A stretch of DNA of 54,423 bases from Candidatus Parvarchaeota archaeon (GTDB taxonomy: Archaea; Nanobdellota; Nanobdellia; Parvarchaeales; Parvarchaeaceae): assembly GCA_023269965.1 (NCBI GenBank), contig JAGDXU010000026.1:1-54423 (forward strand). Reading direction: 5' to 3'. Of the stretch, positions 3,672 to 40,168 are shown in pieces. Position 1 is the first letter of the stretch, and the number at the start of each line of letters is the position of its first letter. The notes beneath the pieces are model-generated. The model saw only the letters and a program-made list of their open reading frames with translations, did not search any database and was not told where the DNA came from. Made by a program: the position numbers and the translations under genes.

Positions 3672-3935
3672 ATGCCAAGATATGAAGTTGCGGATGATCT
3701 AAATGAGAGAACCAAGGATTTGAGTAGAGCCAGACAGTCTCTGATTGAGGAGATCGAAGCGATAATGTTCTATGACGAAAGAGCAGCCGCTACAAAAGAC
3801 AAAGACTTGAGAGAGGTTATAATACACAACAGAGACGATGAAAAGGAGCATGCAAGTTTACTGTTAGAATGGCTAAGGGAACACGATGAAGCTCTTGACA
3901 AAGAACTGAAGAAAAGCTTGTTCTCAAAGAAGTGA
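3672..3935 (+). CDS. Encapsulated-ferritin-like (EncFtn/Flp) protein, without cargo-loading peptide
   Basis: SLIEEIEAIMFYDER...HNRDDEKEHASLLLEWLR matches the EncFtn ferroxidase signature (EExEA..Y, HNRDEEKEH). Confidence 0.88.
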   Translation: MPRYEVADDLNERTKDLSRARQSLIEEIEAIMFYDERAAATKDKDLREVIIHNRDDEKEHASLLLEWLREHDEALDKELKKSLFSKK

Positions 3936-5302: not shown

Positions 5303-7048
5303 TTAGCTTTCTATACCTGGAATCTTAGGGAGGTTATCATTTGATGAATTGATTATCTTTATTATGCTGGTTATAGAGCCATTGCCTATCGTTCCGTTTG
5401 CTATACCGCCGATTATCGAGCTGTTACCTATGCGTATAGGGAAAGGATGCTCCTTAATTTCGCAGCTCCTTATAAGCATGCCCTCTTGGATCATCAAGGA
5501 TCTAATCTTACTGTTTATGGCTAGTATGGCCGACACATTTGAACTTGCCGCTACTGCAGATTGCTCTCCTGCCAGCTTCTTCAATTCATAGGATGTAGAA
5601 TTTAGAATGCCAGCTATCTGCGCTTTACATGTCGAATTTATTGATATGTTGCTCAGGAATCTCCCTATATTTTCGTTCTGGTCGTTTATATCGTCGCTTA
5701 TTTCATTCTGTATTTCAGTCTCGTTGAATCTATCATTTAAGAATGAATTGTTTATAATGGCCCTATGCATATAAGACTCATATAAATCTGAATTCATCTG
5801 GCTGTTTATTTGGGCTATCATGGACAGCGCAGCTGATATATTGTTAGATGATATTGACATATTAGCGTTCTTAGCCATACTCAACAAGCTGTCCAATTCC
5901 TTCGATAAAGATAAAGCAGTTGAGTTGTTTAAGCTTATGTTATATATTGATAGATTATAGTAATTTAATTTACTTAGTATATCAGAAAGTTGACCTTTAA
6001 TAGAACCGAGCTCCTTCGCTACATTTATAAGTGTCTTGTGTAACTCGCTTTCGTTCTCAAAGGCCTTATGAAACTGTTTAAGTAGACCAAATGCTGCATT
6101 CACAGCTGACTCTGATTCATAGGTGATATTATTATCTTTTAAGTAAGTGTCTATCTGTGCTACCACAGAAGGTATTCCAACAACCTTCACATCGGTTATA
6201 TTTTCTGTTTTTATGTACTTCACTATACCTGGCATTTGGGCTGTTACATTGCTAACCAACGCCATCGAAGAATTTACTGATGGAAGAGACCCTATTATCA
6301 TTGAAGCATTCCAAGCATTTTGGTTTACTCCGACAATTAAGTATCTGCTAACTTTCTCTGGAGGTACAAACGATTCATTTTCATTTGAATATCTGACCGA
6401 GGTACTCTTGCTAACCTGTGATTCAACGACTGGTAGAAGATCTTTAGGCCCGAAGAAAGTTATATTTGTTATATTATGACTTGAGAGGTATGACAGTACC
6501 GGTAAAGGAATGTTGTTGAAGTAAAGAGGGAATAATATGCATCTATTTCTAGCACTGTAGATACTGCCAGCGAATTGATATGAGTAGTACGAGGACGGAT
6601 TCTCATTGTATGGCACTATCACTGCACATGACGTATTAGCTGAAGGAAGGAAATAATCTGCTAAGTTTATAGCTGTCTCAGGGGCAGTTATACCAAAGAT
6701 TCTTAGAACGTTGAAACCGGCATTCTGCAAAGCCTGGACTGTTTGGTTAGATATAACCGCTGGGCCGCCCACTAATATTATATTCTTTATGCCCTGCGCA
6801 GTCAGGTTAGCTATCACCTGCGGAGATATTAAGGTTGAATTCAATGATATCACGGGTATGCCATAGAAAGATGCAAGTGGGTAAGATGAGAAGTAATCTA
6901 TAGAGTTTATACCTGTAGTGATTATAGCAGTATCACTCGATGAAGGCTGAAAATATGATATGTTCGGCAAAGCATGTGAAACTGTCACTAAGAACAGAGA
7001 AAGCAAGAATACCACGCCGAAATAAAGATATATGTTTTTCATCACCAT
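5303..7048 (-). CDS. Secreted/surface protein with cell-wall-binding repeat 2 (CWB2)-like domain
   Basis: N-terminal signal peptide; IILVGGPAVIS...RIFGITAPETA CWB2 motif; many N-x-S/T sequons; helical C-terminal half. Confidence 0.8.
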   Translation of the reverse strand: MVMKNIYLYFGVVFLLSLFLVTVSHALPNISYFQPSSSDTAIITTGINSIDYFSSYPLASFYGIPVISLNSTLISPQVIANLTAQGIKNIILVGGPAVISNQTVQALQNAGFNVLRIFGITAPETAINLADYFLPSANTSCAVIVPYNENPSSYYSYQFAGSIYSARNRCILFPLYFNNIPLPVLSYLSSHNITNITFFGPKDLLPVVESQVSKSTSVRYSNENESFVPPEKVSRYLIVGVNQNAWNASMIIGSLPSVNSSMALVSNVTAQMPGIVKYIKTENITDVKVVGIPSVVAQIDTYLKDNNITYESESAVNAAFGLLKQFHKAFENESELHKTLINVAKELGSIKGQLSDILSKLNYYNLSIYNISLNNSTALSLSKELDSLLSMAKNANMSISSNNISAALSMIAQINSQMNSDLYESYMHRAIINNSFLNDRFNETEIQNEISDDINDQNENIGRFLSNISINSTCKAQIAGILNSTSYELKKLAGEQSAVAASSNVSAILAINSKIRSLMIQEGMLIRSCEIKEHPFPIRIGNSSIIGGIANGTIGNGSITSIIKIINSSNDNLPKIPGIES

Positions 7049-7126
7049 ATCTTCTATTAACTTTTAAGCCTATTTAAACTTTGCGCCGGCCTGAACCACG
7101 CATTTTTTCTAAAAGAACACAAAACT

Positions 7127-7210
7127 TGCAGAGGAGGGGATTTGAACCCCCGAGGGCGCTAGGCCATAAGGTCCTTAGCCTTACGCGTTGGACCGCTTCG
7201 CTACCTCTGC
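7127..7210 (-). tRNA. tRNA-Leu(AAG)
   Basis: Acceptor stem GCAGAGG/CCTCTGC-A, anticodon arm TAAGG-CT-AAG-GA-CCTTA, long variable arm, GTTCAAATC. Confidence 0.93.
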
Positions 7211-7396
7211 ATTCCAGCTTATTATCTTATATTATCTATCTTTATTTTAATTTATATTCTATCCTGATATGATGCTATGCGCTCTCTTACTATAAAATAG
7301 TGGGCACTGTCTGCTGATCCTGAATGATTTAAAGACTTAAATAAAACTTCACTTCTACTAAATCAATATAAGGTAGATATAGACAGTGGGGGTTTT

Positions 7397-8047
7397 ATGC
7401 CGTATGTAGCTCTTGATGATAGAGAAAAATTGGACAGATATATCAACGATGTGGCCGACGATTTGGTCGAAAAGCTAAAGAAAGCCAAAACACCAGCAGA
7501 GCTATCAACAATTTATAAGCAAACATTTCTAGCGATAAACAAGACAATATACAATCTTTTAACAAAAAGACCAGCGGAAATTAAAACGAGTGAAGAAAGG
7601 TTGGCTAATAAAATATATGAGCTAGACAAGCATTACGGATATGACGCAGCCTTCAATGGGGAGCTCAATTATTCAATAACTAGAATAATACAGCTTACCC
7701 CAAAGAAGATGGTACAGCAGGGTTTATGGAAAGAAGAGCTGAGATATTGGGTATATTCCCAGACAGTAGGCGCACTGATAATGGCACAAGATGATGTGAA
7801 AAAAATCGCAGCGGAAATGAAAGACTCTTCTTCAGATTGGATATTTGATGGCATTGTTGGAGTTCTAGAGGATGTAAAAGATGAATACAAAAGAAGAGTC
7901 AATACAGCCTATGAAGCTGTACAAATCAAAAAATCAGGGGACTGCTACGATACGCCTTACCACACTGAACTTATCGACATTAAGGACAGCAATGGAAATG
8001 TAATAGGCTGGCAAGAAGTAATGAAAGACTACAGAAAGGACAAGTGA
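7397..8047 (+). CDS. Hypothetical protein, DUF6899-like (family assignment from memory)
   Basis: MPY....DR, GELNYSITR, GVLEDVKDEYKRRV..YE..I..SGDCY pattern, recalled from small phage/MGE-associated proteins. Confidence 0.65.
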   Translation: MPYVALDDREKLDRYINDVADDLVEKLKKAKTPAELSTIYKQTFLAINKTIYNLLTKRPAEIKTSEERLANKIYELDKHYGYDAAFNGELNYSITRIIQLTPKKMVQQGLWKEELRYWVYSQTVGALIMAQDDVKKIAAEMKDSSSDWIFDGIVGVLEDVKDEYKRRVNTAYEAVQIKKSGDCYDTPYHTELIDIKDSNGNVIGWQEVMKDYRKDK

Positions 8048-8094
8048 TAGTAATTTACATACCACATTTGAATCAGCTTTTTGATGCATTGAGT

Positions 8095-8278
8095 ACAGGA
8101 AAACATTTTTAAATAGAAAGAATGATAGAAAGGATGATAGCGTCCATAGGCCAGTGGCAAATCCCGTTCCCATTTCGAACACGGAAGATAATCGCTGGTG
8201 CGTCTCATGAGTAGTCAGTAAAATGGCAAAAATGAGTTGATGCTATCACTTAAATTGTTAAAAGGTGAAGATGATACA
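8095..8278 (+). repeat. 184-bp exact direct repeat, copy 1 (promoter + 5S rRNA + first codons of rps13)
   Basis: Identical by inspection to 9502-9685 (offset 1407). Confidence 0.97.
8135..8248 (+). rRNA. rrf: 5S rRNA, copy 1
   Basis: Terminal helix TGATAGCGTC/GATGCTATCA; conserved CCCGTTCCCATTTCGAACACGGAAG; about 114 nt. Confidence 0.9.
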
Positions 8279-8831: not shown

Positions 8832-9414
8832 TCGAAAACACCTCCTTTATGAATTCCTCTGAATTAAGAAAGACCACGTGGTATTTTAGTACCTCTTTTA
8901 CTAATATATCTTTGCGTAGATCTTCTCTAAATGCATTCATAGGATAGCATTTAACACTTATATCTATCCCATACATCTGCGATGCTCTCTCTATTTCTTT
9001 TTGATTGTATTTACCAACAACAAATATGTCTAAATCTGATTCGGGTCTGTTAGTACCTTTTGCGTAACTTCCGAAGATTACTCCTATTCCATCAATTTGC
9101 GGAGTTATCTTTTCTACTATCTCGTTTATGATTGAATTTTCATTTAGGAAGCTTATAGTTTTGTATTGCTCGCAAAACACTAGAAATCTTTGAGCTATAT
9201 AATTCCGCCTTAAGGAGTATGAGACTATCTTTCCCTGCCTTTTGGATTCGATTATACCTCTGCTCTCAAGGTCTGAGAGCATTATCTGAGCAGTCCTCGG
9301 GCTTATTCTTAGAACACGCTGTACCTCTCTTATATAAAAGCTCCTATCAAATCCTTCTGTGAATAGAGAAAGCACACGTAGATGATTCTCAGTTATGTTT
9401 ACTTTATTATACAT
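8824..9414 (-). CDS. wHTH-fused minimal nucleotidyltransferase (MNT antitoxin)
   Basis: N-terminal winged HTH (YIREVQRVL..SPRTAQ..L..LE..GII); IFGSYAKG....SDLDIFVVG Pol-beta motif. Confidence 0.92.
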   Translation of the reverse strand: MYNKVNITENHLRVLSLFTEGFDRSFYIREVQRVLRISPRTAQIMLSDLESRGIIESKRQGKIVSYSLRRNYIAQRFLVFCEQYKTISFLNENSIINEIVEKITPQIDGIGVIFGSYAKGTNRPESDLDIFVVGKYNQKEIERASQMYGIDISVKCYPMNAFREDLRKDILVKEVLKYHVVFLNSEEFIKEVFSNG

Positions 9415-9501
9415 ATGTATTTATTATAATACAATCTATTTAAACCTATCTTTCTCATGGCTTTGATTCTTATAAAAGTTCACTTGTCGAAATACTGACT
9501 G

Positions 9502-9685
9502 ACAGGAAAACATTTTTAAATAGAAAGAATGATAGAAAGGATGATAGCGTCCATAGGCCAGTGGCAAATCCCGTTCCCATTTCGAACACGGAAGATAATC
9601 GCTGGTGCGTCTCATGAGTAGTCAGTAAAATGGCAAAAATGAGTTGATGCTATCACTTAAATTGTTAAAAGGTGAAGATGATACA
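9502..9685 (+). repeat. 184-bp exact direct repeat, copy 2
   Basis: Identical to 8095-8278; continues into the intact rps13. Confidence 0.97.
9542..9655 (+). rRNA. rrf: 5S rRNA, copy 2
   Basis: Same sequence as copy 1; TTTTTAAATA TATA-like box about 20-29 nt upstream. Confidence 0.9.
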
Positions 9686-12360: not shown

Positions 12361-13053
12361 TCAAATCGACTCTATGATTTTTAATAGCTCCCTTGCGTTC
12401 TTAAGCATATCATGGTCATTGTTGAAAAAGATGAATGCTTCCTTTGGATTATAATTTAAAATCGTATTGATTATACTCCTGAGTTCTTTATTTGAATATT
12501 TATAGGTATACCATGATTTTCTACCGTGAAGCCTTAGATAAATTTTATGTGTTGTTTTAGCGAAGAAAGAGCCTATCGGAGAGTCTATGCTGCACATAGT
12601 CACACCTCTTTCCTTGAACCTAGAATAGATTTCATCATTAAACCAAGACGCTGCCCTTGGCTCCACTACAGCTCTGTCAGATAAACCGCTTCTAGCTATG
12701 AAATCAAGTACAACTTCAGCCTTATTGCCCTCCACGCTCGGAGGAAGCTGGAACAGGTAGTTGTCAATGACATTGTCCATAGGTTTGAAAAGTCCTTCAA
12801 ATTTTTCAAACATTGGTACTGCCTTCTCACTGAACTTATACATGTGCGTTATACTACGATTAACTTTTATTGACCAGGATAAGCCGCTTCTCTTCGCCCA
12901 CCCCTTAACTTGATTTGGGAATGGGAACCTATAGAAGCTAGAGTTTAACTCAACTGCATTTAAACCAGAATTTGATACGTACCAATCTAAAGTTCTGCCC
13001 TCGTTCCAGTCATAAGACCAGCCAGATGTGCCAACTAAAAATTTAGTTTTCAT
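12361..13053 (-). CDS. DUF72 (UPF0759) family protein
   Basis: VGTSGWSY, AVELNSSFY, LFQLPPS, YLRLHGR, FFNND. Confidence 0.94.
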   Translation of the reverse strand: MKTKFLVGTSGWSYDWNEGRTLDWYVSNSGLNAVELNSSFYRFPFPNQVKGWAKRSGLSWSIKVNRSITHMYKFSEKAVPMFEKFEGLFKPMDNVIDNYLFQLPPSVEGNKAEVVLDFIARSGLSDRAVVEPRAASWFNDEIYSRFKERGVTMCSIDSPIGSFFAKTTHKIYLRLHGRKSWYTYKYSNKELRSIINTILNYNPKEAFIFFNNDHDMLKNARELLKIIESI

Positions 13054-14381
13054 TTAGGCAATACAAATTGCTCCTGTCCCTTAAATATATCTATCTCATT
13101 AACCAACTCATCTCTAACCTTCACGTACTTTATATCGGCCAAAACATTCTTTCCATTTTTGGTAAATTCCTCTATAGTCCCTGTCTTCCCCTCTACTGTA
13201 AGCTTGAAATCATCCTTGAAAATTGCCTTCCTTGGCCTTTCATATAAACTTATGAGAGACCTGTTATTAACTGCATCTCTTCTAGAAATCGGCACATTGA
13301 GCCCATAAGCCTCTGAAAAAGCAGTTTCAGTCGTTAAGCTGTGGTCATCGCCGCCATCAGCCGCTTCTATTATCGTCTTCGATAGATTCACCAGACTTTG
13401 GTGTCCTTTCTTTTCACCAAACTTACGATTCTTTGGATACTTTATTATCAGAGGTACCTTTATCAATTCATCGTATAGATAAACCCCATGATCGATGTAC
13501 CCATGCTCATTCAATGCTTGACCATGGTCTGAAGTCACAATTACCATAGTATCATCGTATAATCCCATCCTCTTAAGGTTCGATATGATCTTTCCTATCA
13601 TCTGATCAAGATACTCGGCTTCCAAGATGTATTCAGATTTAACAGCCCTCATCTCTTTCGATTTTATCCTCGGAGATTTAAAGTTCTCTTGAGGGCCCCT
13701 ATATGAAGAATGTCTGTAAGGCTCGTGCACCTCCATAAGGTTAATGAACCTGAAAAAAGGCTCATTCCAATTCGATCCAGAGAGTAGCATGTTAACATAA
13801 AAAGCGCCTTTATCAAATGGAAAGTTGAGAACCTTCTCTACTTTCCTCGTTTTGAGATAAGACGCGCCATACTTGAATAAGGTTCCTATTTTCATCTTTT
13901 TGATAAGAGAGGAGATTATTTCTGTGTTACTATACCCGCTCCTTATCATCTTCATTAGCTCTTTATCCTGCCTGAGCTGGTATCTTGTAGGAACGGTATC
14001 TATATTGAAAAAATTATTGAAGCCGATATCAAGATTTGTAAGGGTGGAGACTAAAAGATTGGTGGAGATGCCAAGTGTATTGTATCCTTTAGAGGAAAGA
14101 ATAGTCGATATTAGATTTTTATAAATGCTCTTATTCTTATTTGCCACATGCCATGTCTTTAACTTTTCTGTTTCGTGCACACCATGTTCATTCAGATACA
14201 TCCCACTAAAAAAGGACACATGAGATGGTACCGTCCAAGGCGATGGAGAAATCGCATTTTTGTACAGCATCCCATCACGAGCCAAATCTGATAGATTCTT
14301 CATCTTCGCGGGGCCGCCGTACAAGTCTAACACATCACGCCTAAGTGTATCACACAATATGAAAAGTACATTGTCTGCCAT
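13050..14381 (-). CDS. Sulfatase-like hydrolase/transferase (alkaline phosphatase superfamily)
   Basis: ILCDTLRRD, SPWTVPSHVSFFSG, NLMEVHEPY, VTSDHG, HG..LYDELIKVPLII. Confidence 0.9.
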   Translation of the reverse strand: MADNVLFILCDTLRRDVLDLYGGPAKMKNLSDLARDGMLYKNAISPSPWTVPSHVSFFSGMYLNEHGVHETEKLKTWHVANKNKSIYKNLISTILSSKGYNTLGISTNLLVSTLTNLDIGFNNFFNIDTVPTRYQLRQDKELMKMIRSGYSNTEIISSLIKKMKIGTLFKYGASYLKTRKVEKVLNFPFDKGAFYVNMLLSGSNWNEPFFRFINLMEVHEPYRHSSYRGPQENFKSPRIKSKEMRAVKSEYILEAEYLDQMIGKIISNLKRMGLYDDTMVIVTSDHGQALNEHGYIDHGVYLYDELIKVPLIIKYPKNRKFGEKKGHQSLVNLSKTIIEAADGGDDHSLTTETAFSEAYGLNVPISRRDAVNNRSLISLYERPRKAIFKDDFKLTVEGKTGTIEEFTKNGKNVLADIKYVKVRDELVNEIDIFKGQEQFVLPK

Positions 14382-14619
14382 GTTCTAATTAGTACACCTC
14401 GATATATAGATAGGGTACTCTTCCATAACTGCTTTATTTAGGTACATCCTGAATTTGTTACCACGCATATTCTTATCTGTTTCTTCTTTCATAAATACCT
14501 ATTCTTACTGCCTTTGATCATTCTCGAATCAAGGTATTCTCATTGCTGAGATATTAAATTTAACAGATTTTATCGCCAGACGATTCTTTAAATATATTAT
14601 CACTATAGAATAGAAATGT

Positions 14620-14645
14620 ATTAATAGTAAATTATATCTATTAAT
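14620..14645. promoter_or_regulatory. Inverted repeat ATTAATAG-N10-CTATTAAT, candidate operator
   Basis: Perfect 8-bp arms ending 5 nt before the ATG at 14651; TTTAAATA box upstream near 14587. Confidence 0.4.
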
Positions 14646-14650
14646 TTGAT

Positions 14651-15799
14651 ATGACAATTGATTACAAACAGAACCTTAGATATACTTGGTGGGAAGAGAA
14701 CACAGATGGTGGTCTTTATTATCCAGACGTATCATGGGAAATCCTAGAAAATCAAGGTCTCAATCATAGCGATATGGAAAAGGCCTTAGATACATTGAAA
14801 GATGTCTCTTATGGAAGAACAAGCTGGGACAAATTTAATTTAATGTGGGTAAAACTGATAGCAAAAAAGCATACCTCAGAAGAGAGCGGATCGAATTTTT
14901 GGATTGAAAGAGCTAACGCAGATAAGATAACGGAAAAGAGGATAGACGAAGCTAAGACTCTAGATGATCTTGTAAAAATCTTAGGTTATGCTGACTATGA
15001 TAAACTAAAAGCCGAAGATGGGTATGAGAAGTTCTATAAGCCGAAAAATATATCTATTGGAGAATTATATAGAAGCGATTCATCAGGCACTACCGGCGCA
15101 CCAAAGACAGTTTACCATGGACCGCTCCCTTTGACCTTTTCAGCTTTGGACGAGGTCACCGGGATAATTAACACTGTTCCTCAATCCGAATTAAACGGTA
15201 AAAAACTACTGTGTTTAGGCCCTACCGGGGCTTATCAAGAGGAGCATAGGATAATCACAGATATATTGAATATGGATTATTTTGACCTTTCCTTTAACAC
15301 AAGAGGGTTAAAAAACAAATCACCTGAAGAGATAAATAAAATCATTGGGCCTGTGATTAAGAGAACCATAGATGAATTAATAAAGGGAGATGTTGGGATA
15401 ATGACAGGAACTCCCCAAGTATTGTACGGGATACCGAAAGAGCTGATAGAAAAAGTTACGATGATTAAAATGTCTGGGGTAGAGATAAACGCAAATGAGA
15501 TACATAGGCTGGAGAGAGAATATGGGGCAAAGGGAACAAAGTTTATGCCGATGTATGGGCATTTTGCGGGAAAGTCTTCAATAGGCATAGTCAACAATGA
15601 ATCAATAGAGTATTTTCCACCCTACCCATTCACAATTTACAAATTCGGGAATTCGGTAGGCTATGGACAAAGAGACAGAGCTGAACTTATAGTAGCACAG
15701 CCAGAACTCCTGCTTATACATCCGGAAGACTACGGGAAAAAGGTTAAATCCAATGAAATGTTCAATGAGGTAGATGGGATAGCAGACCCATCGAGGTGA
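14651..15799 (+). CDS. EhpF-like adenylate-forming enzyme (ANL/PaaK-related, lacks C-terminal domain)
   Basis: SSGTTGAPK P-loop; H.SEESGSNFWIERA, VGYGQR..A.L and terminal DGIADP recall the EhpF (phenazine-activating) family; 382 aa. Confidence 0.72.
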   Translation: MTIDYKQNLRYTWWEENTDGGLYYPDVSWEILENQGLNHSDMEKALDTLKDVSYGRTSWDKFNLMWVKLIAKKHTSEESGSNFWIERANADKITEKRIDEAKTLDDLVKILGYADYDKLKAEDGYEKFYKPKNISIGELYRSDSSGTTGAPKTVYHGPLPLTFSALDEVTGIINTVPQSELNGKKLLCLGPTGAYQEEHRIITDILNMDYFDLSFNTRGLKNKSPEEINKIIGPVIKRTIDELIKGDVGIMTGTPQVLYGIPKELIEKVTMIKMSGVEINANEIHRLEREYGAKGTKFMPMYGHFAGKSSIGIVNNESIEYFPPYPFTIYKFGNSVGYGQRDRAELIVAQPELLLIHPEDYGKKVKSNEMFNEVDGIADPSR

Positions 15800-16464
15800 A
15801 TATGGTTGTTGAAAGGATAAAAACTGGAATATATGGACTTGATGAAAAAATTGAGGGTGGCTTCGAAAAAGGAAGTGTAATAACAATACTTGGCGGGCCT
15901 GGTGCCGGAAAGTCAATAATTGGGATGCAGTTCCTGTATCATGGCGCTAAAAACGGAGAAAATGGGTTATATTACTCTTTTGAGGAGTCAAGAGAGGATA
16001 TCATCAAAGACATGGAAGCTGTTGGACTCGATCCAACGGATTTGATTAAACAAAACAAACTCAGTGTGGTTTCGGCCTCGCCAGTCGATTTTGAATATCT
16101 CCCCATAATAGATTCGATCAAAAAGGATAACATTAAAAGACTTGTTATAGACTCTCTCTCGACAATCTCTATGTACTTTGAGAATAACTCAAAGTTCAGG
16201 AGATTTCTGCTTGATTTGGTAAGCAGCCTGAAGGAAATTGGCGTTACGACAATAATGACGGACGAACAAGCACAGGGGACGGGGGAGAATGAGATTATGT
16301 TCTTCAGTGGTGAATATCTATCTGACGCCGTCATAAAGCTTTACTACAGTGGGCTTGGCGGTGAATACGATAGGAGCATGCAGATAATAAAGATGCGCAG
16401 GACGAATAATGAAAGGAGTGTCATACCGATGAAAATAGGGCAGGGTGGTATATACTTGAGGTGA
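15796..16464 (+). CDS. KaiC-like (RAD55/RecA superfamily) single-domain ATPase
   Basis: RIKTGIYGLD, GGPGAGKS Walker A, YSFEES, RLVIDSL Walker B, IIKMRRT. Confidence 0.95.
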   Translation: MNMVVERIKTGIYGLDEKIEGGFEKGSVITILGGPGAGKSIIGMQFLYHGAKNGENGLYYSFEESREDIIKDMEAVGLDPTDLIKQNKLSVVSASPVDFEYLPIIDSIKKDNIKRLVIDSLSTISMYFENNSKFRRFLLDLVSSLKEIGVTTIMTDEQAQGTGENEIMFFSGEYLSDAVIKLYYSGLGGEYDRSMQIIKMRRTNNERSVIPMKIGQGGIYLR

Positions 16465-16469
16465 AGCCA

Positions 16470-17000
16470 ATGGATAATTCAGATTTGGAAGCCGAACAGT
16501 ACCTTCAAAACCTCATAATGACAAAAAACGTGAGGGTTGAAGACGGTAGGCTTCTGCTTCTGGGCCGCCCGGGGGTGATGCTAAATGCAGAATTCATAGT
16601 TTCCTTCTCAAAATATCTTGGTGATTACAACTCTGACTCAGTTGTCAAACTCGGAGAAAATTTGGGGGACAGTATCACTAAAGACTATAAAAACAGATTC
16701 ATTGATCCAAATAAGACCCTAAAGTTTCTATCTAGCATAACCCCTCTTGTAGGAGTTGGCAGAATTAACTTTAACATAGAAAATGAACAAGTGATAACAA
16801 CGATATCGCCTTCTGTTCTGGGAGAAACCTACGTAAAGCTATTTGGGCTAGCTAAAACGCCACAATGTCATTTCGTAGAAGGAGTAATCAATAGATTATT
16901 GGAGGGGATATTAAATAAGAAATTTAAGACAAATGAAATTGAATGCGTAAGTAAAGGCGATAATAACTGCAAATTTTTGACAACGGAGGTAAAAACTTAA
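16470..17000 (+). CDS. V4R (4-vinyl reductase) ligand-binding domain protein
   Basis: DGRLLLLG, GVGR, PQCHFVEG, EIECVSKGDNNCKF (V4R C..E..C...C signature). ATG 16470, or GTG 16461. Confidence 0.9.
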   Translation: MDNSDLEAEQYLQNLIMTKNVRVEDGRLLLLGRPGVMLNAEFIVSFSKYLGDYNSDSVVKLGENLGDSITKDYKNRFIDPNKTLKFLSSITPLVGVGRINFNIENEQVITTISPSVLGETYVKLFGLAKTPQCHFVEGVINRLLEGILNKKFKTNEIECVSKGDNNCKFLTTEVKT

Positions 17001-17026
17001 AAATAGAAAAAGCTTAAAAATGGAAC

Positions 17027-18472
17027 ATGGAAAAACGTGACCGGAGACTTGACCGGGAAGTAATTAGAGAGGTTGAAAATGCTTATAAGACGTTACCGGA
17101 CTTCTTGAAAACTGAGGTTTTGCCATCTTCAGAACTAGTTAGTGCCTATAAGATGTTAGAGTATGCCAGTGCCAATGTCCCGTTATACTCAAAAAAACCG
17201 TATCTGGAAGCAGTGAATAAGGCGAAAAATGGTGACTTAGAAGAGATCTTAAAGTCCACACCAATTATTGATGGTAGCATTTTCCTTAGCCATTATGATG
17301 ATTTGATTCCGTTGAATAAAACACCGATAACTGTGTATTTCTCATCAGGCTCCACCGGCAAACCAAAGCCAATACCTAGGACTTATGATCAAGATATTGA
17401 TTATGCCAGGGGATTCATAAAAAGCGTAATATATCCTGTGATGCCGAATGGCATGGATATAGAAATAAATAAAGGCCCGCCTCTGCCCGCCATAAGTGGT
17501 CGATTAATGAGCGTGATCTCGATGGAATCTAAAGCGATTGAATTTAGCCAGGGCCCGGCTCAAACAATCGCGGATCTTTTGAGGGTCATAGAAAAATTTG
17601 ATAGTAATCACTCAAAAAATATACTTATGCTGGGCTTTCCATCCGCTGTAATAAGGGAGATATATAACTTGAATGAAAGCGACAAGAATTACTTAAAAGA
17701 TGTGGTAAACAAGTTAAATTTGTATGTATTAGTTGGCGGCGAAACTTTGCCATATCAGAGAGCAAAACTACTTTACAACCTGTTACCTAGCAAAACTTTG
17801 ATAGACTTTATAGGTAGTTCGGAGGGGATTGTGGCGTATAGGGTTTACACTAGGGAAGAACTTGAAAATGATTTAGTTATAAATAAACCGTTTAGATTTG
17901 TGTCTTACAACAATCTTTTTATGATAAAGACGGGTCTGAATGGCGCGGAAAAACTGCTGACCCCTAAAGAAGCTGTCGGGCTTGAAGGTGAGCTTGTGAT
18001 AACCACCAAGGCCAGAGAAGGCGCAGAATACGTGCCACTTATAAATTACAACACCAAGGATTTAATAAAAGTAACAGACGTAGCAGAGAATGGGGACATC
18101 ATGGGCTACTATATAGGCAGGGCAGATGGGATAAAAAGGTTCGGTGTGGGTAAGCTGGTAGAGGAGATGATAGTAAACACTATAAGTGATTTGATAAACA
18201 GATATAAAGTTGGAGAGGGATACTCAGTCATAACTAGAGAAAATGGGCTAGACAAAGCCACTTTCTACTTAGACAGGGGACAATTCAGCGGTGACCCAGA
18301 AGAATTAACAAAAACCATCAAAAGCTCACTGTCATCTGCGCAGATGGAGATAGCTTATTCACTGGAAAAAGAACTGGCTACAATTCATGTCGAATTATTA
18401 AATAAAGACAGCATACCTTTCTACAAAGACAGAGGCAAAAGCAAGTGGCTGATAGATAAAAGAGAAGTTTGA
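17027..18472 (+). CDS. Phenylacetate-CoA ligase (PaaK)-like adenylate-forming enzyme
   Basis: YASANVPLY, FSSGSTGKPK, VGGETL, GSSEG, GELVITT, PLINYNTKDL, YIGRAD, GKSK.LIDKR. Confidence 0.88.
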   Translation: MEKRDRRLDREVIREVENAYKTLPDFLKTEVLPSSELVSAYKMLEYASANVPLYSKKPYLEAVNKAKNGDLEEILKSTPIIDGSIFLSHYDDLIPLNKTPITVYFSSGSTGKPKPIPRTYDQDIDYARGFIKSVIYPVMPNGMDIEINKGPPLPAISGRLMSVISMESKAIEFSQGPAQTIADLLRVIEKFDSNHSKNILMLGFPSAVIREIYNLNESDKNYLKDVVNKLNLYVLVGGETLPYQRAKLLYNLLPSKTLIDFIGSSEGIVAYRVYTREELENDLVINKPFRFVSYNNLFMIKTGLNGAEKLLTPKEAVGLEGELVITTKAREGAEYVPLINYNTKDLIKVTDVAENGDIMGYYIGRADGIKRFGVGKLVEEMIVNTISDLINRYKVGEGYSVITRENGLDKATFYLDRGQFSGDPEELTKTIKSSLSSAQMEIAYSLEKELATIHVELLNKDSIPFYKDRGKSKWLIDKREV

Positions 18473-28005: not shown

Positions 28006-28596
28006 TCAAAGTTTACCAATATCTTTCACTGTATCGATCTCCATCTTGTTTACATTCTCGGTTGCCTTTGCAATCGCAGGTATGATGCATATATGCCCAG
28101 CGCTCTCCTTCGTATCATGTATGGTCTTCAGGCCTCTTAGCGAGAATAGTATATTTCCCACATCCTTACCCAATGCATCATTGAATACAGCGTAGTATTG
28201 AAGCCTACCCTCAGGATCGATTATGACTAGTCCCCTTCTAGCGCCCCCAGTCTCACTATTTATGAAACCGTAACTAGTCACTATCTCCTTCTTAGGATCC
28301 TGGATCATAGGTATCTTACTCTTACTTACCCTTGGAGAGACTTGAACCCATCCCTTATGCGAGAACACAGTATCTGTGCTTATCGCAAATATCTCTGCAT
28401 TCTCTTTCTTGAATTCATCGTATCTACTCATTAATGCTTCAATATCTGTTGCACATACAAATGTAAAATCACCTGGATAAAATGTAAGTATTACCCACTT
28501 TCCTCTATAGTCTTTCAAGCTTACCTCCTTTATTTCGTCAGACTCCGGAAAGTAAGCCTTTTCCTTAAAGTTAGATGTTTCGCTCCCAATCTCCAT
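28006..28596 (-). CDS. Peroxiredoxin (AhpC/Prx1-like)
   Basis: LKDYRGKWVILTFYPGDFTFVC, ISTD..FSHKGW, RGLVIIDPEG. Confidence 0.92.
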   Translation of the reverse strand: MEIGSETSNFKEKAYFPESDEIKEVSLKDYRGKWVILTFYPGDFTFVCATDIEALMSRYDEFKKENAEIFAISTDTVFSHKGWVQVSPRVSKSKIPMIQDPKKEIVTSYGFINSETGGARRGLVIIDPEGRLQYYAVFNDALGKDVGNILFSLRGLKTIHDTKESAGHICIIPAIAKATENVNKMEIDTVKDIGKL

Positions 28597-28741
28597 ATTT
28601 GCCTCCTAAGAATAATTCTCTTATCTACTTTAAATCACATACATCCTTTAAATAATTTTATATGTGATGCGCAGCTCACACTTCTAGGCGAACTTTCCTA
28701 CTACCATGATAGTTTGTGCCCGCTATAGAATTTCTCTAGTC

Positions 28742-29914
28742 TTACTTACTGAATTTCTTGTTAAGTTTAATCGGGTCCGTGTGTCTGAAATATAAATTAA
28801 AGATGAAATCGAATGTTCCCTTTAAGCTTGACCAGTATATCTTCTCCATCATCATTTTTTCAAAATGATTCAGCCTGCTAGGAGGATATGGTACGACTGG
28901 CTGGTCGTATGAACCTATGACAAAAGTCCCTTTTCCATAACCTAAATCAAATGGGCAGTTAGTTCTACCATCGAATTTATCTTCTTTTCCCTGCAAAATA
29001 TTGGCGACTATCTTCGCTTCCAGGTGCGCTCCAACTCCTGCTTTAGAAGTTGGGATATTAGTTGCATCGCCTATTGCAAACGCATCATCAAAACCTTGTA
29101 TTCTCATGTTAAATTTGTCAGTTTTAATGAACCTATCATCATCTAACACGGTCTTCGGCTCGTAATCTATTTTAGCCCCTTTAAAGGGCGGAATTATGAT
29201 TGGAAGATCAAATTTGATCTGGTCCCCCTCAAGCGAATACAATGTATTTGCGTCTATATGGTCCAAATCAAAGAACGTCATTATCTGGATGCCTCTCTCC
29301 TTCATAATAGGCTCTACGACGTTATTAATTGGTTCTGCAGAATAAGCTCTCGGATACGGCGTAAAAAATACAAGTTTTGTTCTGTCTTTTAGTTTTCTTC
29401 TATTTATCAGCATCTCTGTGAGCAGCACCCCCTCTATTGGAGAAGGTGGACATTTGCAAATTGGGGAAGCTTGACCGAGAACGATTGTGCCACCTTTAAA
29501 TGAATTTAGATTTTTCCATACACGCTGTGCATTCTCTATACTTGTATGATAGTCGCCATACTTATCATCGATTTCCTTTAATCCAGAGACAGTGCTGGCA
29601 TCGCTCATCGTACCAGTTGCAACCACTATATAATCATAGGCATATTCTCCACCTTCTGTGAAGACTTTCTTATTCGTTAAGTCAACTTTTTTCACAGGAT
29701 CTAATTTAAATTTGATACCTTTTTTGATCAGCTTAGGGATTTTTTTAGTTGGTACTTCCTTTCCCATAAAAGCCGCATAAAGAAATGCGGGCTGAAAAAC
29801 CTGCGTGTCAGATTTATCCAATATAGTTACATCAAAATCCTTTTGATTCAGTGAGTTTGCGAGGATTATTCCCCCGGCTCCCCCACCGACGATAACAACT
29901 CTCTTTTTTTCCAT
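28742..29914 (-). CDS. sqr: Sulfide:quinone oxidoreductase-like FAD-dependent oxidoreductase
   Basis: VIVGGGAGG, YDYIVVATG, KCPPSP.E, FAIGDA...PTSKAG, NCPF; in an operon with dsrE/tusA. Confidence 0.82.
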   Translation of the reverse strand: MEKKRVVIVGGGAGGIILANSLNQKDFDVTILDKSDTQVFQPAFLYAAFMGKEVPTKKIPKLIKKGIKFKLDPVKKVDLTNKKVFTEGGEYAYDYIVVATGTMSDASTVSGLKEIDDKYGDYHTSIENAQRVWKNLNSFKGGTIVLGQASPICKCPPSPIEGVLLTEMLINRRKLKDRTKLVFFTPYPRAYSAEPINNVVEPIMKERGIQIMTFFDLDHIDANTLYSLEGDQIKFDLPIIIPPFKGAKIDYEPKTVLDDDRFIKTDKFNMRIQGFDDAFAIGDATNIPTSKAGVGAHLEAKIVANILQGKEDKFDGRTNCPFDLGYGKGTFVIGSYDQPVVPYPPSRLNHFEKMMMEKIYWSSLKGTFDFIFNLYFRHTDPIKLNKKFSK

Positions 29915-30156
29915 TATCTCTTCAGAATTTTTATAATTACTACGACTTTATCTGGCTGATCTTCGATACTCAATACCTGATTTCCGGTCTTCTGGGCCCA
30001 AGCTGTTACATCATTTTTAATCCCCTTGTCAGTTGCCCAGATTTCAATTGTGTCCCCCACTTTTGAGTTCCTATAAGCTTTTGCCAAGTCGACTATCGGG
30101 CCAGGGCAGCTTGATCCCCTTGAATCTACAAAAATCTTGTTTTCTTCCATACTCAT
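29914..30156 (-). CDS. tusA: Sulfurtransferase TusA family protein
   Basis: DSRGSSCPGP motif, EIWATDKG...DV.AWA. Confidence 0.93.
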   Translation of the reverse strand: MSMEENKIFVDSRGSSCPGPIVDLAKAYRNSKVGDTIEIWATDKGIKNDVTAWAQKTGNQVLSIEDQPDKVVVIIKILKR

Positions 30157-30554
30157 ATGAAAAGCACCCTCCCATTCTCTGTGTTCGATATGAACGTCGC
30201 AGCCCCAACAATATCATCAACAATCGGATCTAAATCCTCTTTTTTAAACCCAAATAAGTCACATGCAAGCGAGCATGCATAAACCTTAGCCCCCATCTCC
30301 TTAGCACCTTTTATCATCTCATACCATGATTTAACATTATGTTCCTGCATGCTCTTCAATAATTGAGGACCAAAGCTTTCAAACTCCTTAGGCAATAACA
30401 ATTTCTTATCGCCTTTAACGAAATTAAGTAAACCCCAAAAAGTCACAAAAATTTCCACATCTTCGCCCAATGACGCAGCCGCCTGTGAAAGAATCCCTAC
30501 CGACATCAACTTATCTGTAGTGCCGCTGAAAACAATCATTCCAAACTTTCCCAT
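30153..30554 (-). CDS. DsrE2-like sulfur carrier
   Basis: FSGT.DKL, IFVTFWGL, GAKVYACSL, VGAATF, LFI C-terminus. Confidence 0.92.
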   Translation of the reverse strand: MGKFGMIVFSGTTDKLMSVGILSQAAASLGEDVEIFVTFWGLLNFVKGDKKLLLPKEFESFGPQLLKSMQEHNVKSWYEMIKGAKEMGAKVYACSLACDLFGFKKEDLDPIVDDIVGAATFISNTENGRVLFI

Positions 30555-36997: not shown

Positions 36998-39900
36998 CTA
37001 AATGCTATTGTTTTCTATGAGAGAAAGGTTCTTATCAAACACACTTGGAAGATAGCTTAGATTATCACAGTAATTTATAGCTGCAGGGGAAGTCGAACAT
37101 TCCCCAGTCAGTTCATACTTTGAAAGCTGTGTGTAGTTTATCTGATAAACGTTTATGTTCGTAAGAACTTGATTCTCGATGCTTAGAAGAGAGTTCACTG
37201 GCAGGTTGTCAGAGAACACCAGCTTAAAGCCAGGGACAGTCTCATTCAAAAGATATAACTTTACAAATAATGTGTTTAATGTTTGATTTGGCATGAATAA
37301 GCCAGCAGGTTGATTTCCATAGGAAGATAGATTAATTGGTTCCGGTATATAGCCCTGGCCTACTCCACCTATATGGAGAGTTGCTGTCTCGTTTGGAAGA
37401 AGAAGCATGAATCCTCCAGGTATGCCGCTTGTGCTTTCCTGCACACACCCTTTAGAATAAGTACACATGTAATCTATTGGCATGGGAGACGAAGCCTGCT
37501 GCGTTAAGGTATTGTAGATTATACCGTAAGGTTTTCCTATCACTGTGGATGAATTAAACGGCAGCAGCACCTCAAGTAATATGGCATCGCTTGCCGGGAC
37601 GTTCTGTAATCCAACTGTTACATTCGAATTGACCAAAGCATAACCTGTGTTTGGGCTCCCCCCAAACACAGCCAGATACTTATAACTAGCGTTACCGATG
37701 TTGTTAGAATTCAATTGTGATGTCCCCTCTATCAGCGGAGAAAATTCAGTCGGCTTCAATGCTATCGTTGAGATAGCTGAGAACTTTAAAACTTCGCTGC
37801 CGCTGATAACTGCGTACGTTGGTTCATGAATAAAATGAAGATAAGTCGCATACTGGTAAGGTGATGTGGCTTCAAAGAAGTACTTTGCAATCATAGACTG
37901 ATATCCATAGGCGTTACTCCCGTCAGCAACTGCTGTTCTTCCAGCTATCGCCTCTTCCCAATAACCATAATCCCACCACGAGATTATTGAACTGTTAGCG
38001 GGAGTATTCTGGTTTATCCAAAGCATAGTAGGGCCCCAAAGCGCAAGACCTGATCCACTCTGCTGCGCTATCTGATAAGATACTGTCAAACTGTCGTACA
38101 ACTCTATAGCAACGAATGTAAGTGCTATAATGGTTATCAGACCTACTGCCAGATAGAATAACCTCTTCTGTTCAGGGCTCTTGAATAACGACTTAGTGTA
38201 TTTGATCCCGGAGTTAGTCAAGAAAACAACTGCTAGAGGAACCAACAATGCTGCTGTTAGATCAGTCGGTTCCAAAAGCCTCAACTCTAAATTTGATAAA
38301 ACCAATGTCAAAATGAATAAAGTTAGGAGCATAAGGTACACTTTATCTGAGACGCTCTCCCTTTCAAATTTATCAAATACTAAGAATATAGTGAATATGC
38401 CAATCAAACCAAAGGCTCCATATTTATAGTAATTCTTAGCTTGCCCTATAGCCAGCGAAACAACAATCAAGATTATAGATATAAACACAAAAACAGCTAC
38501 ATTTCCGAGGAGCTTTTTGCTTCTGTGCCGACTGAATTCATATAGCGCTATGACCTCTGGCAAAAATGACATTATAACTGTTACTATAAGGTAAACTTCC
38601 GAGGATAAGCTGAATGAGAAGGTTCCACCATTTATAAGTACCACCATCGGAAGCAACAGAGAATAGAAGATATACCAGTGCTTGAATCTCCTTGAAATAA
38701 GATAAAGGAGCACTCCGGAACCAATGAACAGCAGCAAGAAATTTACCCCGATACCTGAAACAACAAAATTGTACTCTGAGAACCTATCTGCGAGGTTAAC
38801 GACGCCATACTCAGCAATCGTCAAAGACAGTGGATTTACAGCGCCAAGGCCAAGCGGATGAGCTATCTCCGAGCTCAGAAATGTAAGGATTTTATGGAGT
38901 AAATTCAACTTAGGAATTAGGCTTATCACAAAACTTATCAAGAGCGCATATATAACCGGGCTTGTGCCTTCGTTGATATGAGGTATCCTCAATCTATCTT
39001 TGTATTTATCATAAACGAAAAGCTTAAAGAGTATCACTAAATACACAAAGTACATCGGAAACAGCTCAAAACTCAACAAGTTCGACAGACTGAAGTTCAA
39101 GAAACTGGCTTCAAATGCTAGGAACAACCCAAATGGCAAAAACGCGTACAGATCCTCCTTCTTATCGAATTCAAACATTATCAAAAGAAGGTATGTCAGT
39201 GGTATGGTTATTACAGAGAACTCTGCGTAGCCACTGGTTATCGTCCCAAAACCTACTGATATAGCCATCAGAAAGCCATACAACAGTTTAGAATTTCTGT
39301 CTTTTGACGTGAATATTTTTACAAGCATGAAAAATGACAAGAATATAAACATGAAACCCATCGCGGTCTTAGTTGAAAATCCTGCTGAGGTCCTGCCTAG
39401 CAGTGTTTCAAACGCAGGAAAAACAAAGGCTCCCAAAGAAGCCATCCAATAATCTCTGAAGATGTACAACAGAATGAAGAATAAGAGCAGGGTCATAACC
39501 ACCGCAACAATCGGTGGGTAAATCATAAACCAAGTCATTGGGGTAGCGGCTGGAACCAAAGGCTGCATGAAACGATACATGTACGCGCCGAAAAACGATA
39601 TAAGAACTTCCTGAGACCTTGAGGCTAACCCTATCGGGAGGTACTGAAGATGGTTTATCACGGGTACATTACCAGTCGTAATGATATCCTTCATGAGGTC
39701 ATAGAATTCATACGGGTCTAAACCAGTAAGCGAACCGCCCATACCTAGATAATCATTGCCGACCAGTGGCGTAGCCCCTAATGCAGGTAAGCTAGCAGTC
39801 CTTATTAACAAACCTAGGATTATTGCTGTAAACAAAAGCGCATAAAACGGCGCCTTGTGTTTGGTGAATAAGGCTGAGAGGACAGCTGAGACTATCATAA

Positions 39901-40168
39901 GTACGAGAGTGATATAGAAATAAATCGATAGATAAGTGTAAAGCAAAGAGACCACCATCAAAACCGCTAGAATGGCGAATATGAGGCCATAACCTACGCC
40001 ATACTTTACCACTGGCTTCAACATCGACTTTATAGAATCAAGATTGAGATTTAATTCAAGCTCGGTGACTTTTTCAGTCTTTTTTTCCTCATGGACTTGC
40101 GGCGGAGATTCTCGAGATTTATCCCCGTTTACATTGTTTTCCATTTCCTCTTTTTTCAGGCCGTCCAT
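36998..40168 (-). CDS. aglB: Oligosaccharyltransferase AglB (STT3)
   Basis: LDPY, TIAE, SWWDYG and VADG motifs; polytopic N-terminus. Confidence 0.95.
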   Translation of the reverse strand: MDGLKKEEMENNVNGDKSRESPPQVHEEKKTEKVTELELNLNLDSIKSMLKPVVKYGVGYGLIFAILAVLMVVSLLYTYLSIYFYITLVLMIVSAVLSALFTKHKAPFYALLFTAIILGLLIRTASLPALGATPLVGNDYLGMGGSLTGLDPYEFYDLMKDIITTGNVPVINHLQYLPIGLASRSQEVLISFFGAYMYRFMQPLVPAATPMTWFMIYPPIVAVVMTLLLFFILLYIFRDYWMASLGAFVFPAFETLLGRTSAGFSTKTAMGFMFIFLSFFMLVKIFTSKDRNSKLLYGFLMAISVGFGTITSGYAEFSVITIPLTYLLLIMFEFDKKEDLYAFLPFGLFLAFEASFLNFSLSNLLSFELFPMYFVYLVILFKLFVYDKYKDRLRIPHINEGTSPVIYALLISFVISLIPKLNLLHKILTFLSSEIAHPLGLGAVNPLSLTIAEYGVVNLADRFSEYNFVVSGIGVNFLLLFIGSGVLLYLISRRFKHWYIFYSLLLPMVVLINGGTFSFSLSSEVYLIVTVIMSFLPEVIALYEFSRHRSKKLLGNVAVFVFISIILIVVSLAIGQAKNYYKYGAFGLIGIFTIFLVFDKFERESVSDKVYLMLLTLFILTLVLSNLELRLLEPTDLTAALLVPLAVVFLTNSGIKYTKSLFKSPEQKRLFYLAVGLITIIALTFVAIELYDSLTVSYQIAQQSGSGLALWGPTMLWINQNTPANSSIISWWDYGYWEEAIAGRTAVADGSNAYGYQSMIAKYFFEATSPYQYATYLHFIHEPTYAVISGSEVLKFSAISTIALKPTEFSPLIEGTSQLNSNNIGNASYKYLAVFGGSPNTGYALVNSNVTVGLQNVPASDAILLEVLLPFNSSTVIGKPYGIIYNTLTQQASSPMPIDYMCTYSKGCVQESTSGIPGGFMLLLPNETATLHIGGVGQGYIPEPINLSSYGNQPAGLFMPNQTLNTLFVKLYLLNETVPGFKLVFSDNLPVNSLLSIENQVLTNINVYQINYTQLSKYELTGECSTSPAAINYCDNLSYLPSVFDKNLSLIENNSI

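Follow-up and report, generated by a model that had tools for sequence, protein, structure and literature searches.

A conserved archaeal gene cluster combining a single-domain KaiC-like ATPase and a stand-alone V4R protein with two putative adenylate-forming enzymes

The window analyzed here is a 54,423-nucleotide (nt) stretch of a Candidatus Parvarchaeota genome (contig JAGDXU010000026.1, assembly GCA_023269965.1; 666 kb in 27 contigs, ~90% complete), a member of the ARMAN-type DPANN archaea. At positions 14651–18472 it carries four co-oriented open reading frames (ORFs) on the plus strand, which encode an EhpF-like adenylate-forming enzyme (gene 1), a single-domain KaiC-like ATPase (gene 2), a stand-alone V4R protein (gene 3), and a PaaK-like two-domain ligase (gene 4; Table 1). 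A preliminary description of this stretch, made from its letters and translations, had assigned the genes to these four families, pointed out the motifs SSGTTG in gene 1 and SSGSTG in gene 4, and proposed a system that activates or conjugates a carboxylic acid and senses it through V4R and KaiC. The ORF listing bears out the tight packing: genes 1 and 2, like genes 2 and 3, overlap by 4 nt, and 26 nt separate gene 3 from gene 4. Both motifs are present in the translations, and all four identities held up in sequence and fold searches. The arrangement is not peculiar to this genome, as it recurs in Parvarchaeales and in a second phylum, the Aenigmatarchaeota.

Table 1 Features of the four-gene cluster and its upstream side, in window positions
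Feature	Position	Strand	Remarks
Gene 1, EhpF-like adenylate-forming enzyme	14651–15799	+	382 aa, ATG start
Gene 2, single-domain KaiC-like ATPase	15796–16464	+	222 aa, GTG start, 4-nt overlap with gene 1 end
Gene 3, stand-alone V4R protein	16461–17000	+	179 aa, GTG start, 4-nt overlap with gene 2 end
Gene 4, PaaK-like two-domain ligase	17027–18472	+	481 aa as the ORF stands, ATG start
AT-rich spacer, putative promoter region of the cluster	14382–14650	.	269 nt, between the divergent sulfatase-like gene and gene 1
Sulfatase / type I phosphodiesterase-family gene	13050–14381	-	divergent from gene 1

Gene 1 has no match among Pfam or NCBIfam families. Sequence searches against solved structures retrieved only EhpF (3l2k, 3hgu; E 2.7e-4 over residues 66–336), and an AlphaFold model built with 11 homologues as input (mean predicted local distance difference test score, pLDDT, 84.8) likewise has EhpF as its best Foldseek match (3hgv, E 7.4e-17), followed by PaaK-family ligases, so that EhpF is the nearest solved relative by both sequence and fold. 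In VIA-align, model residues 35–382 superpose on EhpF residues 3–352 (Z 26.1), while the alignment of the whole model (1–382) to PaaK1 (Z 22.4) covers only PaaK1 residues 4–325 of 427. Because this alignment stops at residue 325, the protein consists of the ANL N-terminal domain only, with the C-terminal subdomain absent as in EhpF. Gene 1 therefore combines the adenylate-forming N-terminal fold and the Ser/Thr/Gly-rich P-loop of ANL enzymes with an atypical state, shared with EhpF, in which the mobile subdomain carrying the catalytic lysine is missing, a feature that the preliminary description had overlooked. The P-loop motif (SSGTTGAPK) lies within SDSSGTTGAPKTVYH. Across 12 homologues from two phyla the P-loop block S142–Y155 is invariant save for residues 143, 150, and 151, and SSGTTGxPK is invariant. 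The possibility that gene 1 is a dead pseudo-enzyme was rejected on the invariance of this nucleotide-binding block across both phyla.

Gene 4 shows the complete ANL build: a two-domain fold, a P-loop, and a C-terminal lysine. Its P-loop motif (SSGSTGKPK) lies within YFSSGSTGKPKPIPR. Family models recognize it poorly, with 22 bits to Pfam AMP-binding (PF00501; cut-off 29.9) and 27.1 bits to the haloarchaeal PaaK equivalog NF041878 (cut-off 700), which leaves it PaaK-like in fold only. The best Foldseek match of its AlphaFold model (mean pLDDT 72.8) is PaaK1 (2y27, E 3.0e-17), with ~480 columns aligned on a 425-aa chain across both domains. Invariant in 13 homologues are the P-loop residues S107, G108, S109, G111, P113, and K114, together with E266, R365, and, in the C-terminal stretch KSKWLIDKR, K471, D477, and R479 (Lys-x5-Asp-x-Arg); we take these positions to be ANL motifs A3, A5, A8, and A10. 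Judging by the invariant nucleotide-binding residues, gene 4, gene 1, and the KaiC-like gene 2 are all likely to be catalytically competent. The nearest solved relatives of the two enzymes act, by their entry titles, on aryl acids: EhpF on a phenazine acid and PaaK1 on phenylacetate, with NatL2, AjiA1, and ClxA as further examples. The start of gene 4 is uncertain (17027 or the in-frame ATG at 17153) because its homologues are only 448–451 aa long and begin ~34 residues later than the window ORF. Two variant copies of gene 4 were seen elsewhere. A homologue from the same genus carries one in-frame TAG (G003:C12:1697-3037). On an ARMAN-4 scaffold (L037:6947-9614) the gene lies in two opposite-strand pieces, 6947-8101 (-) and 8883-9614 (+), around a 5′-shortened KaiC gene and V4R; here the module has either undergone an internal inversion or been misassembled.

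Gene 2 has the RecA-type ATPase domain, Walker A, Walker B, and conserved arginine of the KaiC family, and matches Pfam KaiC (PF06745) over one domain (E 2.3e-53, 181.4 bits against a cut-off of 26.6). Thirteen KaiC proteins from such modules all share the Walker A residues G33, G36, G38, and K39, D119 at the Walker B position, and the K199-M200-R201 triplet. Searched as an alignment profile, it retrieves PH0186 (2zts, E 4.4e-64) and PH0284 (E 3.5e-52), and its nearest single-domain solved relatives include SSO2452. It is not a circadian clock KaiC proper, as it is a single domain scoring 141.7 against the required 408 bits for NF006799 and 137 against 249 for TIGR03880.

Gene 3 is the only V4R match in the window genome. 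It scores above the Pfam V4R cut-off (PF02830, E 5.5e-12, 46 bits against 31), contains no other domain, and has a conserved Glu/Cys cluster in which E159, C162, and C170 (E-x2-C-x7-C) are invariant and presumably form a zinc-binding site, as in MopR. At position 135 Parvarchaeales retain the Cys, and Aenigmatarchaeota have Asp. A profile of 14 V4R proteins from such modules matches MJ1460 (E 7.8e-10) and the whole phenol-sensor domain of MopR, residues 21–194 (E 1.3e-9), as well as PoxR and CapR, and from these alignments gene 3 appears to be the equivalent of a whole MopR/PoxR-type ligand-sensor domain. Separately, ~345-aa ORFs with two tandem V4R-like halves were observed in genomes of a sister genus, g2 (G010:C3:58408-59418, G016:C5:82135-83145); these are located apart from the module, and many genomes of that genus have them, module-free ones included.

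To evaluate conservation, genomes were sampled from the Nanoarchaeota, the Aenigmatarchaeota, and one class of the Thermoproteota. In the Parvarchaeales, 19 distinct loci were retained (the window, L023–L037, L018, L097, and L098), after L011–L017, L020–L022, and L099 were dropped as duplicates of the same contigs. All four genes are adjacent in 16 of the 19, in three gene orders: gene 1, KaiC, V4R, and gene 4 in a row, as in the window; KaiC, V4R, and gene 4 with gene 1 convergent; or gene 1, KaiC, and V4R with gene 4 convergent. The exceptions are L032, in which gene 1 runs off the contig, L097, whose contig ends 83 nt past KaiC, and L030, described below.

The module is also unevenly distributed. 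Of 41 related genomes, 13 carry a gene 1 homologue; every one of these belongs to the family of the window genome, and no homologue was seen in the 16 genomes from other families of its class. Within the family, gene 4 occurs in 18 of 40 genomes, and the module-type V4R (E 1e-21 or better, beside gene 4) in the same 18; the 22 genomes without either include some that are 98–100% complete (G005, G007, G009). Because gene 4 and this V4R occur in exactly the same genomes, the module counts as accessory, its genes being acquired and lost together, a status that the preliminary description had missed. Across the wider phylum, three of 401 sampled genomes matched, namely the window genome and two of five from its family, and none of the 395 others.

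Outside the phylum, a scan of species-representative genomes recovered one Aenigmatarchaeota locus (L039), which within 4.4 kb encodes a KaiC (+), a V4R protein (-), a 464-aa AMP-binding enzyme (-), a transglutaminase-like protein (-), and a gene 1 relative (+). The gene 1 profile matches 17 of 301 sampled Aenigmatarchaeota genomes, and in 10 of the 15 loci examined (L039 and 14 more) KaiC or V4R lies beside the gene 1 relative. Three of the remaining five are on contigs of ≤3 kb, one breaks off 54 nt past the long ligase, and in L074 gene 1 is found alone, 1.1 kb from the contig start. A long PaaK-like gene adjoins the gene 1 relative in L039, L067, L068, L069, and L071, as counted by tblastn with the L039 protein, since the gene 4 profile built from Parvarchaeales missed most of these genes. 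V4R is directly beside the long ligase and co-oriented with it in L039, L067, L069, L071, and all complete Parvarchaeales loci. In both phyla V4R is the module's pivot, abutting KaiC and lying beside the co-oriented long ligase. An ORF of ~100 aa recurs in L069, L070, and L077. A metagenome scan with the gene 1 alignment confirmed one locus among 319 pattern matches (L096), in which a gene 1 relative is directly followed by a long PaaK-like gene.

The adjacency of the four families in related and distant genomes, in rearranged orders, indicates that their clustering is more than chance, and chance adjacency was rejected on these counts. Since the arrangement is kept across Parvarchaeales and Aenigmatarchaeota while its order changes, a functional link between KaiC/V4R and the two enzymes is well supported. 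The preliminary description had suggested structural comparison of both enzymes and a gene-neighborhood search as checks, and had made its proposal depend on the arrangement being conserved elsewhere. The fold searches returned EhpF and PaaK1, and the neighborhood search yielded the four-gene set in Parvarchaeales and related sets in Aenigmatarchaeota.

In order to place gene 1 among its relatives, its profile was searched against 1.84 billion cluster representatives, which gave 167 matches at E ≤1e-3, 89 at 1e-10, and 13 at 1e-30. Nearly all members are 330–390 aa long. In distant, bacterial-looking members (P0106, P0148, P0120, P0158) the EhpF-like domain is joined to a class-III aminotransferase, a Zn-dependent alcohol dehydrogenase, or SCP2, a pattern consistent with a route from acid through aldehyde to amine in that part of the family. 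ThnN is the name of one cluster member, one protein-database homologue is named from a Sulfolobus strain, and the Atlas clusters nearest to gene 1 are named “arylcarboxylate reductase” and “acyl-protein synthetase LuxE” (LuxE score 0.97). The window genome itself encodes a second gene 1-like protein (contig C21:1-1071, minus strand; L019) that is 37–39% identical and runs off the contig end, and a search of 351 Thermoprotei genomes gave two strong matches that are 41–42% identical and lie in variable regions (L091:8698-9843 and L092:8178-9266, genomes G1049 and G1051). Weak Thermoprotei matches were rejected as module members, being ordinary PaaK-like genes of 435–470 aa with no KaiC or V4R nearby.

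A quick tree of 105 rows was built from full-length matches of 300–430 aa among P0025–P0111, the locus proteins, and two gene 4 outgroups, with shorter, longer, and later matches left out. The Parvarchaeales genes, the two Thermoprotei genes, the C21 paralogue, and P0025–P0028 form one clade (Shimodaira–Hasegawa-like approximate likelihood ratio test, SH-aLRT, 100), in which the module-linked Parvarchaeales genes make up a sub-clade (SH-aLRT 94) and the C21 paralogue groups with the Thermoprotei copies rather than with the module copy. The Aenigmatarchaeota genes that are linked to the module are dispersed among the deep branches. The two Thermoprotei copies, lying alone in variable regions with transposase genes among their neighbors, suggest gene exchange between Parvarchaeales and acidophilic Thermoprotei.

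Taken together, the four genes very probably act in one process. What that process does can be stated only tentatively: plausibly, the cluster is a conserved, dispensable DPANN module in which a V4R protein and a single-domain KaiC are coupled to two PaaK-clade adenylate-forming enzymes, and from which we infer the activation or conjugation of a carboxylic acid gated by V4R and KaiC. Gene 4, as a complete PaaK-type ligase, would convert a carboxylic acid, probably aromatic or otherwise hydrophobic, to an acyl-adenylate, from which it would move the acyl group to an acceptor bearing a thiol, amine, or hydroxyl. Gene 1, as an EhpF-type enzyme, would add a second step limited to adenylation, using the same acid or a related one, and would need a partner to take over the adenylate and complete the other half-reaction. 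V4R may bind the substrate, the product, or a related ligand, small and probably aromatic or hydrophobic. Archaeal KaiC-like ATPases have been proposed to act as signaling hubs in an input domain–KaiC–output scheme (consulted sections of PMC5847659), and by this scheme V4R and KaiC would gate or scaffold both enzymes, with KaiC coupling ligand state to activity or holding the assembly together. It is conceivable, and in our view unlikely, that the module goes further and constitutes a DPANN signaling circuit of an undescribed kind, in which KaiC and its dedicated V4R sensor control an adenylating pair that makes or consumes an acyl-adenylate-derived molecule exchanged between symbiont and host; if true, no earlier KaiC hub would have had its input and its enzymatic output both defined.

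Several observations weigh against coupling of this kind. Some concern the proteins. In other ANL enzymes the C-terminal subdomain carries the lysine needed for adenylation, and with this subdomain missing from its model the activity of gene 1 is not assured. EhpG, a reductase-type protein, has been proposed as the partner of EhpF in making natural products, and none of the four cluster genes encodes an EhpG-like protein. An hhalign comparison of the gene 1 and gene 4 profiles aligned the P-loop region only (E 1.7e-4), which makes a heteromer of the two enzymes speculation. No longer proteins fusing V4R to another domain were found at E 1e-5 or better, although this is weak evidence. A dedicated lineage of module KaiCs is likewise unproven, because a quick tree of 18 rows, whose branching order is not settled, places the second KaiC of the genome (on contig C15) among the module KaiCs.

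Others concern gene arrangement. KaiC in the Aenigmatarchaeota is usually encoded on the other strand from V4R and the ligase, and a one-operon arrangement therefore does not hold generally. Gene 1 relatives also occur by themselves, which the preliminary description had not noticed. The C21 paralogue stands alone, with no KaiC, V4R, or gene 4; both strong Thermoprotei matches have none of these genes nearby; and L030, a 6.6-kb ARMAN-5 scaffold, carries two gene 1-like genes and none of the other three. Beside the C21 paralogue lie a 178-aa ORF, which has a Cas12f1/TnpB-like TNB domain, and an ORF of 434 aa that matches no family and is not gene 4-like (hhalign probability 0.65%). The Thermoprotei copies have IS200/IS605-type transposase genes among their neighbors, along with genes for a PIN-domain and a macro-domain protein. 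Of the preliminary interpretation, then, the identities and the link between the genes stand, and the features it did not take into account, namely the missing subdomain, the accessory status, and the stand-alone relatives beside mobile elements, qualify it. Its suggestions that the enzymes produce or remove a signal, that V4R detects this signal, and that host or quorum sensing may be examples are conjecture.

Four other explanations were weighed against enzyme activity gated by V4R and KaiC. One is that the substrate is a protein: the ligases would adenylylate or acylate KaiC, V4R, or another protein, and a transglutaminase-like cysteine hydrolase or a metallo-beta-lactamase (MBL)-fold hydrolase would reverse the mark, giving a KaiC-centered post-translational switch. 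Suitable accessory genes exist, with the transglutaminase-like gene (PF01841, E 1.1e-19) lying inside the L039 module and having relatives in L067, L068, and L073, and with MBL-fold hydrolases (PF00753) in L069, L070, and L071; the LuxE-named Atlas cluster near gene 1 points the same way. Such genes are nevertheless present in a minority of the 15 Aenigmatarchaeota loci, and no transglutaminase core was found in the ~90%-complete window genome. No carrier or acceptor protein is conserved, and the invariant V4R cysteines fit a MopR-type metal site rather than an acyl-acceptor site. We therefore regard protein modification as improbable.

Coenzyme F390 synthetase belongs to the PaaK clade, and MsvR senses redox state. 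In a redox-triggered nucleotidylation of this type, the V4R protein with its cysteines would detect oxidation in the way MsvR does, KaiC would serve as the switch, and AMP would be placed on a hydroxyl of some cofactor or metabolite. Such a mechanism would agree with the invariant E159, C162, and C170 of gene 3 and with its best NCBIfam match, the C-terminal part of MsvR (E 6.3e-9, residues 63–173). That match reaches only 35.9 bits against a cut-off of 220 and covers only profile positions 132–235, and gene 3 has no DNA-binding domain, so that it does not qualify as an MsvR. Moreover, the first cysteine, C135, is an Asp in Aenigmatarchaeota, and no F390 synthetase model scored in NCBIfam. On balance this explanation is decidedly unlikely.

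Equally low is our estimate for plain metabolic coenzyme A (CoA) ligases that scavenge or detoxify organic acids beside an unrelated KaiC–V4R regulatory pair. PaaK-type enzymes are usually CoA ligases, going by entry titles. Weak acids are toxic in acid mine drainage, and relatives of the Parvarchaeales loci live there according to published abstracts. Against this explanation, the adjacency persists through three rearrangements within Parvarchaeales and is seen again in a second phylum, and gene 4 and V4R are jointly present in 18 and jointly absent in 22 of the 40 family genomes. No thiolase and no other AMP-binding enzyme that would point to acyl-CoA metabolism was found in the ~90%-complete 666-kb assembly, where gene 4 is the only PF00501 signal and the module enzymes are the only adenylate-forming, ANL-type enzymes found. 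A general fatty-acid or acyl-CoA role was rejected on the same grounds. The preliminary description had called such enzymes unexpected in a minimal genome, and this holds.

Least probable, and in our judgment very unlikely, is a mobile accessory island with a conflict role in virus defense or host-cell interaction rather than in housekeeping signaling, which the patchy distribution (18 of 40 family genomes, 0 of 395 others sampled in the phylum) and the transposase, PIN-domain, and TnpB-like neighbors of stand-alone gene 1 relatives would favor, but against which stand a PADLOC scan of eight module and neighbor proteins with only P-loop-level (KaiC to mad8, 22.7 bits) or weak MBL-fold matches, housekeeping flanks in the window (GlnA, GatCAB, RpoD), and no integrase or repeat seen at the module borders, where no search aimed at repeats was made.

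Upstream of gene 1, the spacer is likely the promoter region of the cluster, as it contains TATA-like runs in the sequence (e.g., 14587–14601 and 14619–14644); a sigma-70-type scan found 14 sites against 12.2 expected from shuffles, which is not above background, and does not model archaeal promoters. The divergent sulfatase-like gene is probably outside the module because the conserved module-flanking genes in the sister genus differ from those of the window. Downstream, gene 4 faces a convergent glutamine synthetase gene (GlnA), followed by gatCAB, and the remaining window genes encode housekeeping functions: ribosomal proteins, RpoD, aminoacyl-tRNA functions, glycosyltransferases, and peptidases. 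Elsewhere in the window, two long ORFs have no Pfam match at E 1e-5 or better (36998–40168, minus strand, 1056 aa; 5303–7048, minus strand, 581 aa). An EncFtn-like (encapsulated ferritin) gene (3672–3935, plus strand) adjoins a superoxide dismutase gene, and no encapsulin shell gene was recognized among the window ORFs. A run of genes for a peroxiredoxin, a pyridine nucleotide-disulfide oxidoreductase, TusA, and a DsrE-like protein (28006–30554, minus strand) has the look of a cluster for sulfur relay or redox chemistry, set in a minimal genome.

No published description of the module was found, in a search that lay outside the neighborhood tables of the 2017 KaiC-hub paper (Makarova, Galperin and Koonin) and its supplements. 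The cluster is not described in the consulted parts of PMC5847659, PMC3149612, PMC10354927, and PMC6393860, and the main texts of two Parvarchaeales genome papers (PMC10134863, PMC7779479) make no mention of KaiC, V4R, phenylacetate, AMP-binding, or words beginning with adenylat. Nor was any literature found that links F390 synthetase with KaiC, V4R, or DPANN archaea. Each part belongs to or resembles a known family, and the combination of a KaiC center, a V4R input, and enzymatic partners appears new to us. Archaeal KaiC-like ATPases are abundant and proposed as hubs, yet few have a defined input and output, and the module offers a compact, testable case, in which a single sensor-type protein and a single ATPase accompany two enzymes that lend themselves to assays of pyrophosphate or AMP release. 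Ultrasmall symbiotic archaea shed most of their metabolism yet keep the module in two DPANN phyla, which suggests a role that matters for that lifestyle. The analysis also defines a rare ANL family without the C-terminal subdomain, of which Pfam and NCBIfam miss gene 1, the member scanned.

Compared with known systems, gene 1 shares with EhpF of Pantoea agglomerans (3hgu, 3hgv, 3l2k) its size, the missing ANL C-terminal subdomain, and an N-terminal “H..-E-GS-FW” stretch, at an identity of only 18–20%. EhpF lies in a bacterial phenazine antibiotic operon (PMC3175449, consulted in part), whereas the partners of gene 1 are a KaiC, a V4R protein, and a PaaK-like ligase in a minimal-genome archaeon. 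PaaK1, PaaK2, and the PaaK-family AMP-ligases (2y27, 4r1l, NatL2 6tm4, AjiA1 6wuq, ClxA 9s45) are the best fold matches of gene 4 and have the same two-domain build, but share only 16–19% identity with it, and no paa catabolic genes lie near gene 4. Like the MopR, PoxR, and CapR sensor domains (5kbe, 5fru, 6iy8) and MJ1460 (2osd), gene 3 is a V4R protein whose profile spans the whole MopR sensor domain; unlike MopR, PoxR, CapR, and MsvR, it has no AAA+ or DNA-binding output domain, and its neighbors are a KaiC ATPase and a ligase rather than a transcription factor module. Clock KaiC has two domains where gene 2 has one, and neither KaiA nor KaiB is present. Gene 2 is instead a member of the archaeal single-domain KaiC-like ATPases (PH0186, PH0284, SSO2452, ArlH), and the hub scheme proposed for these proteins fits the anatomy of the module.

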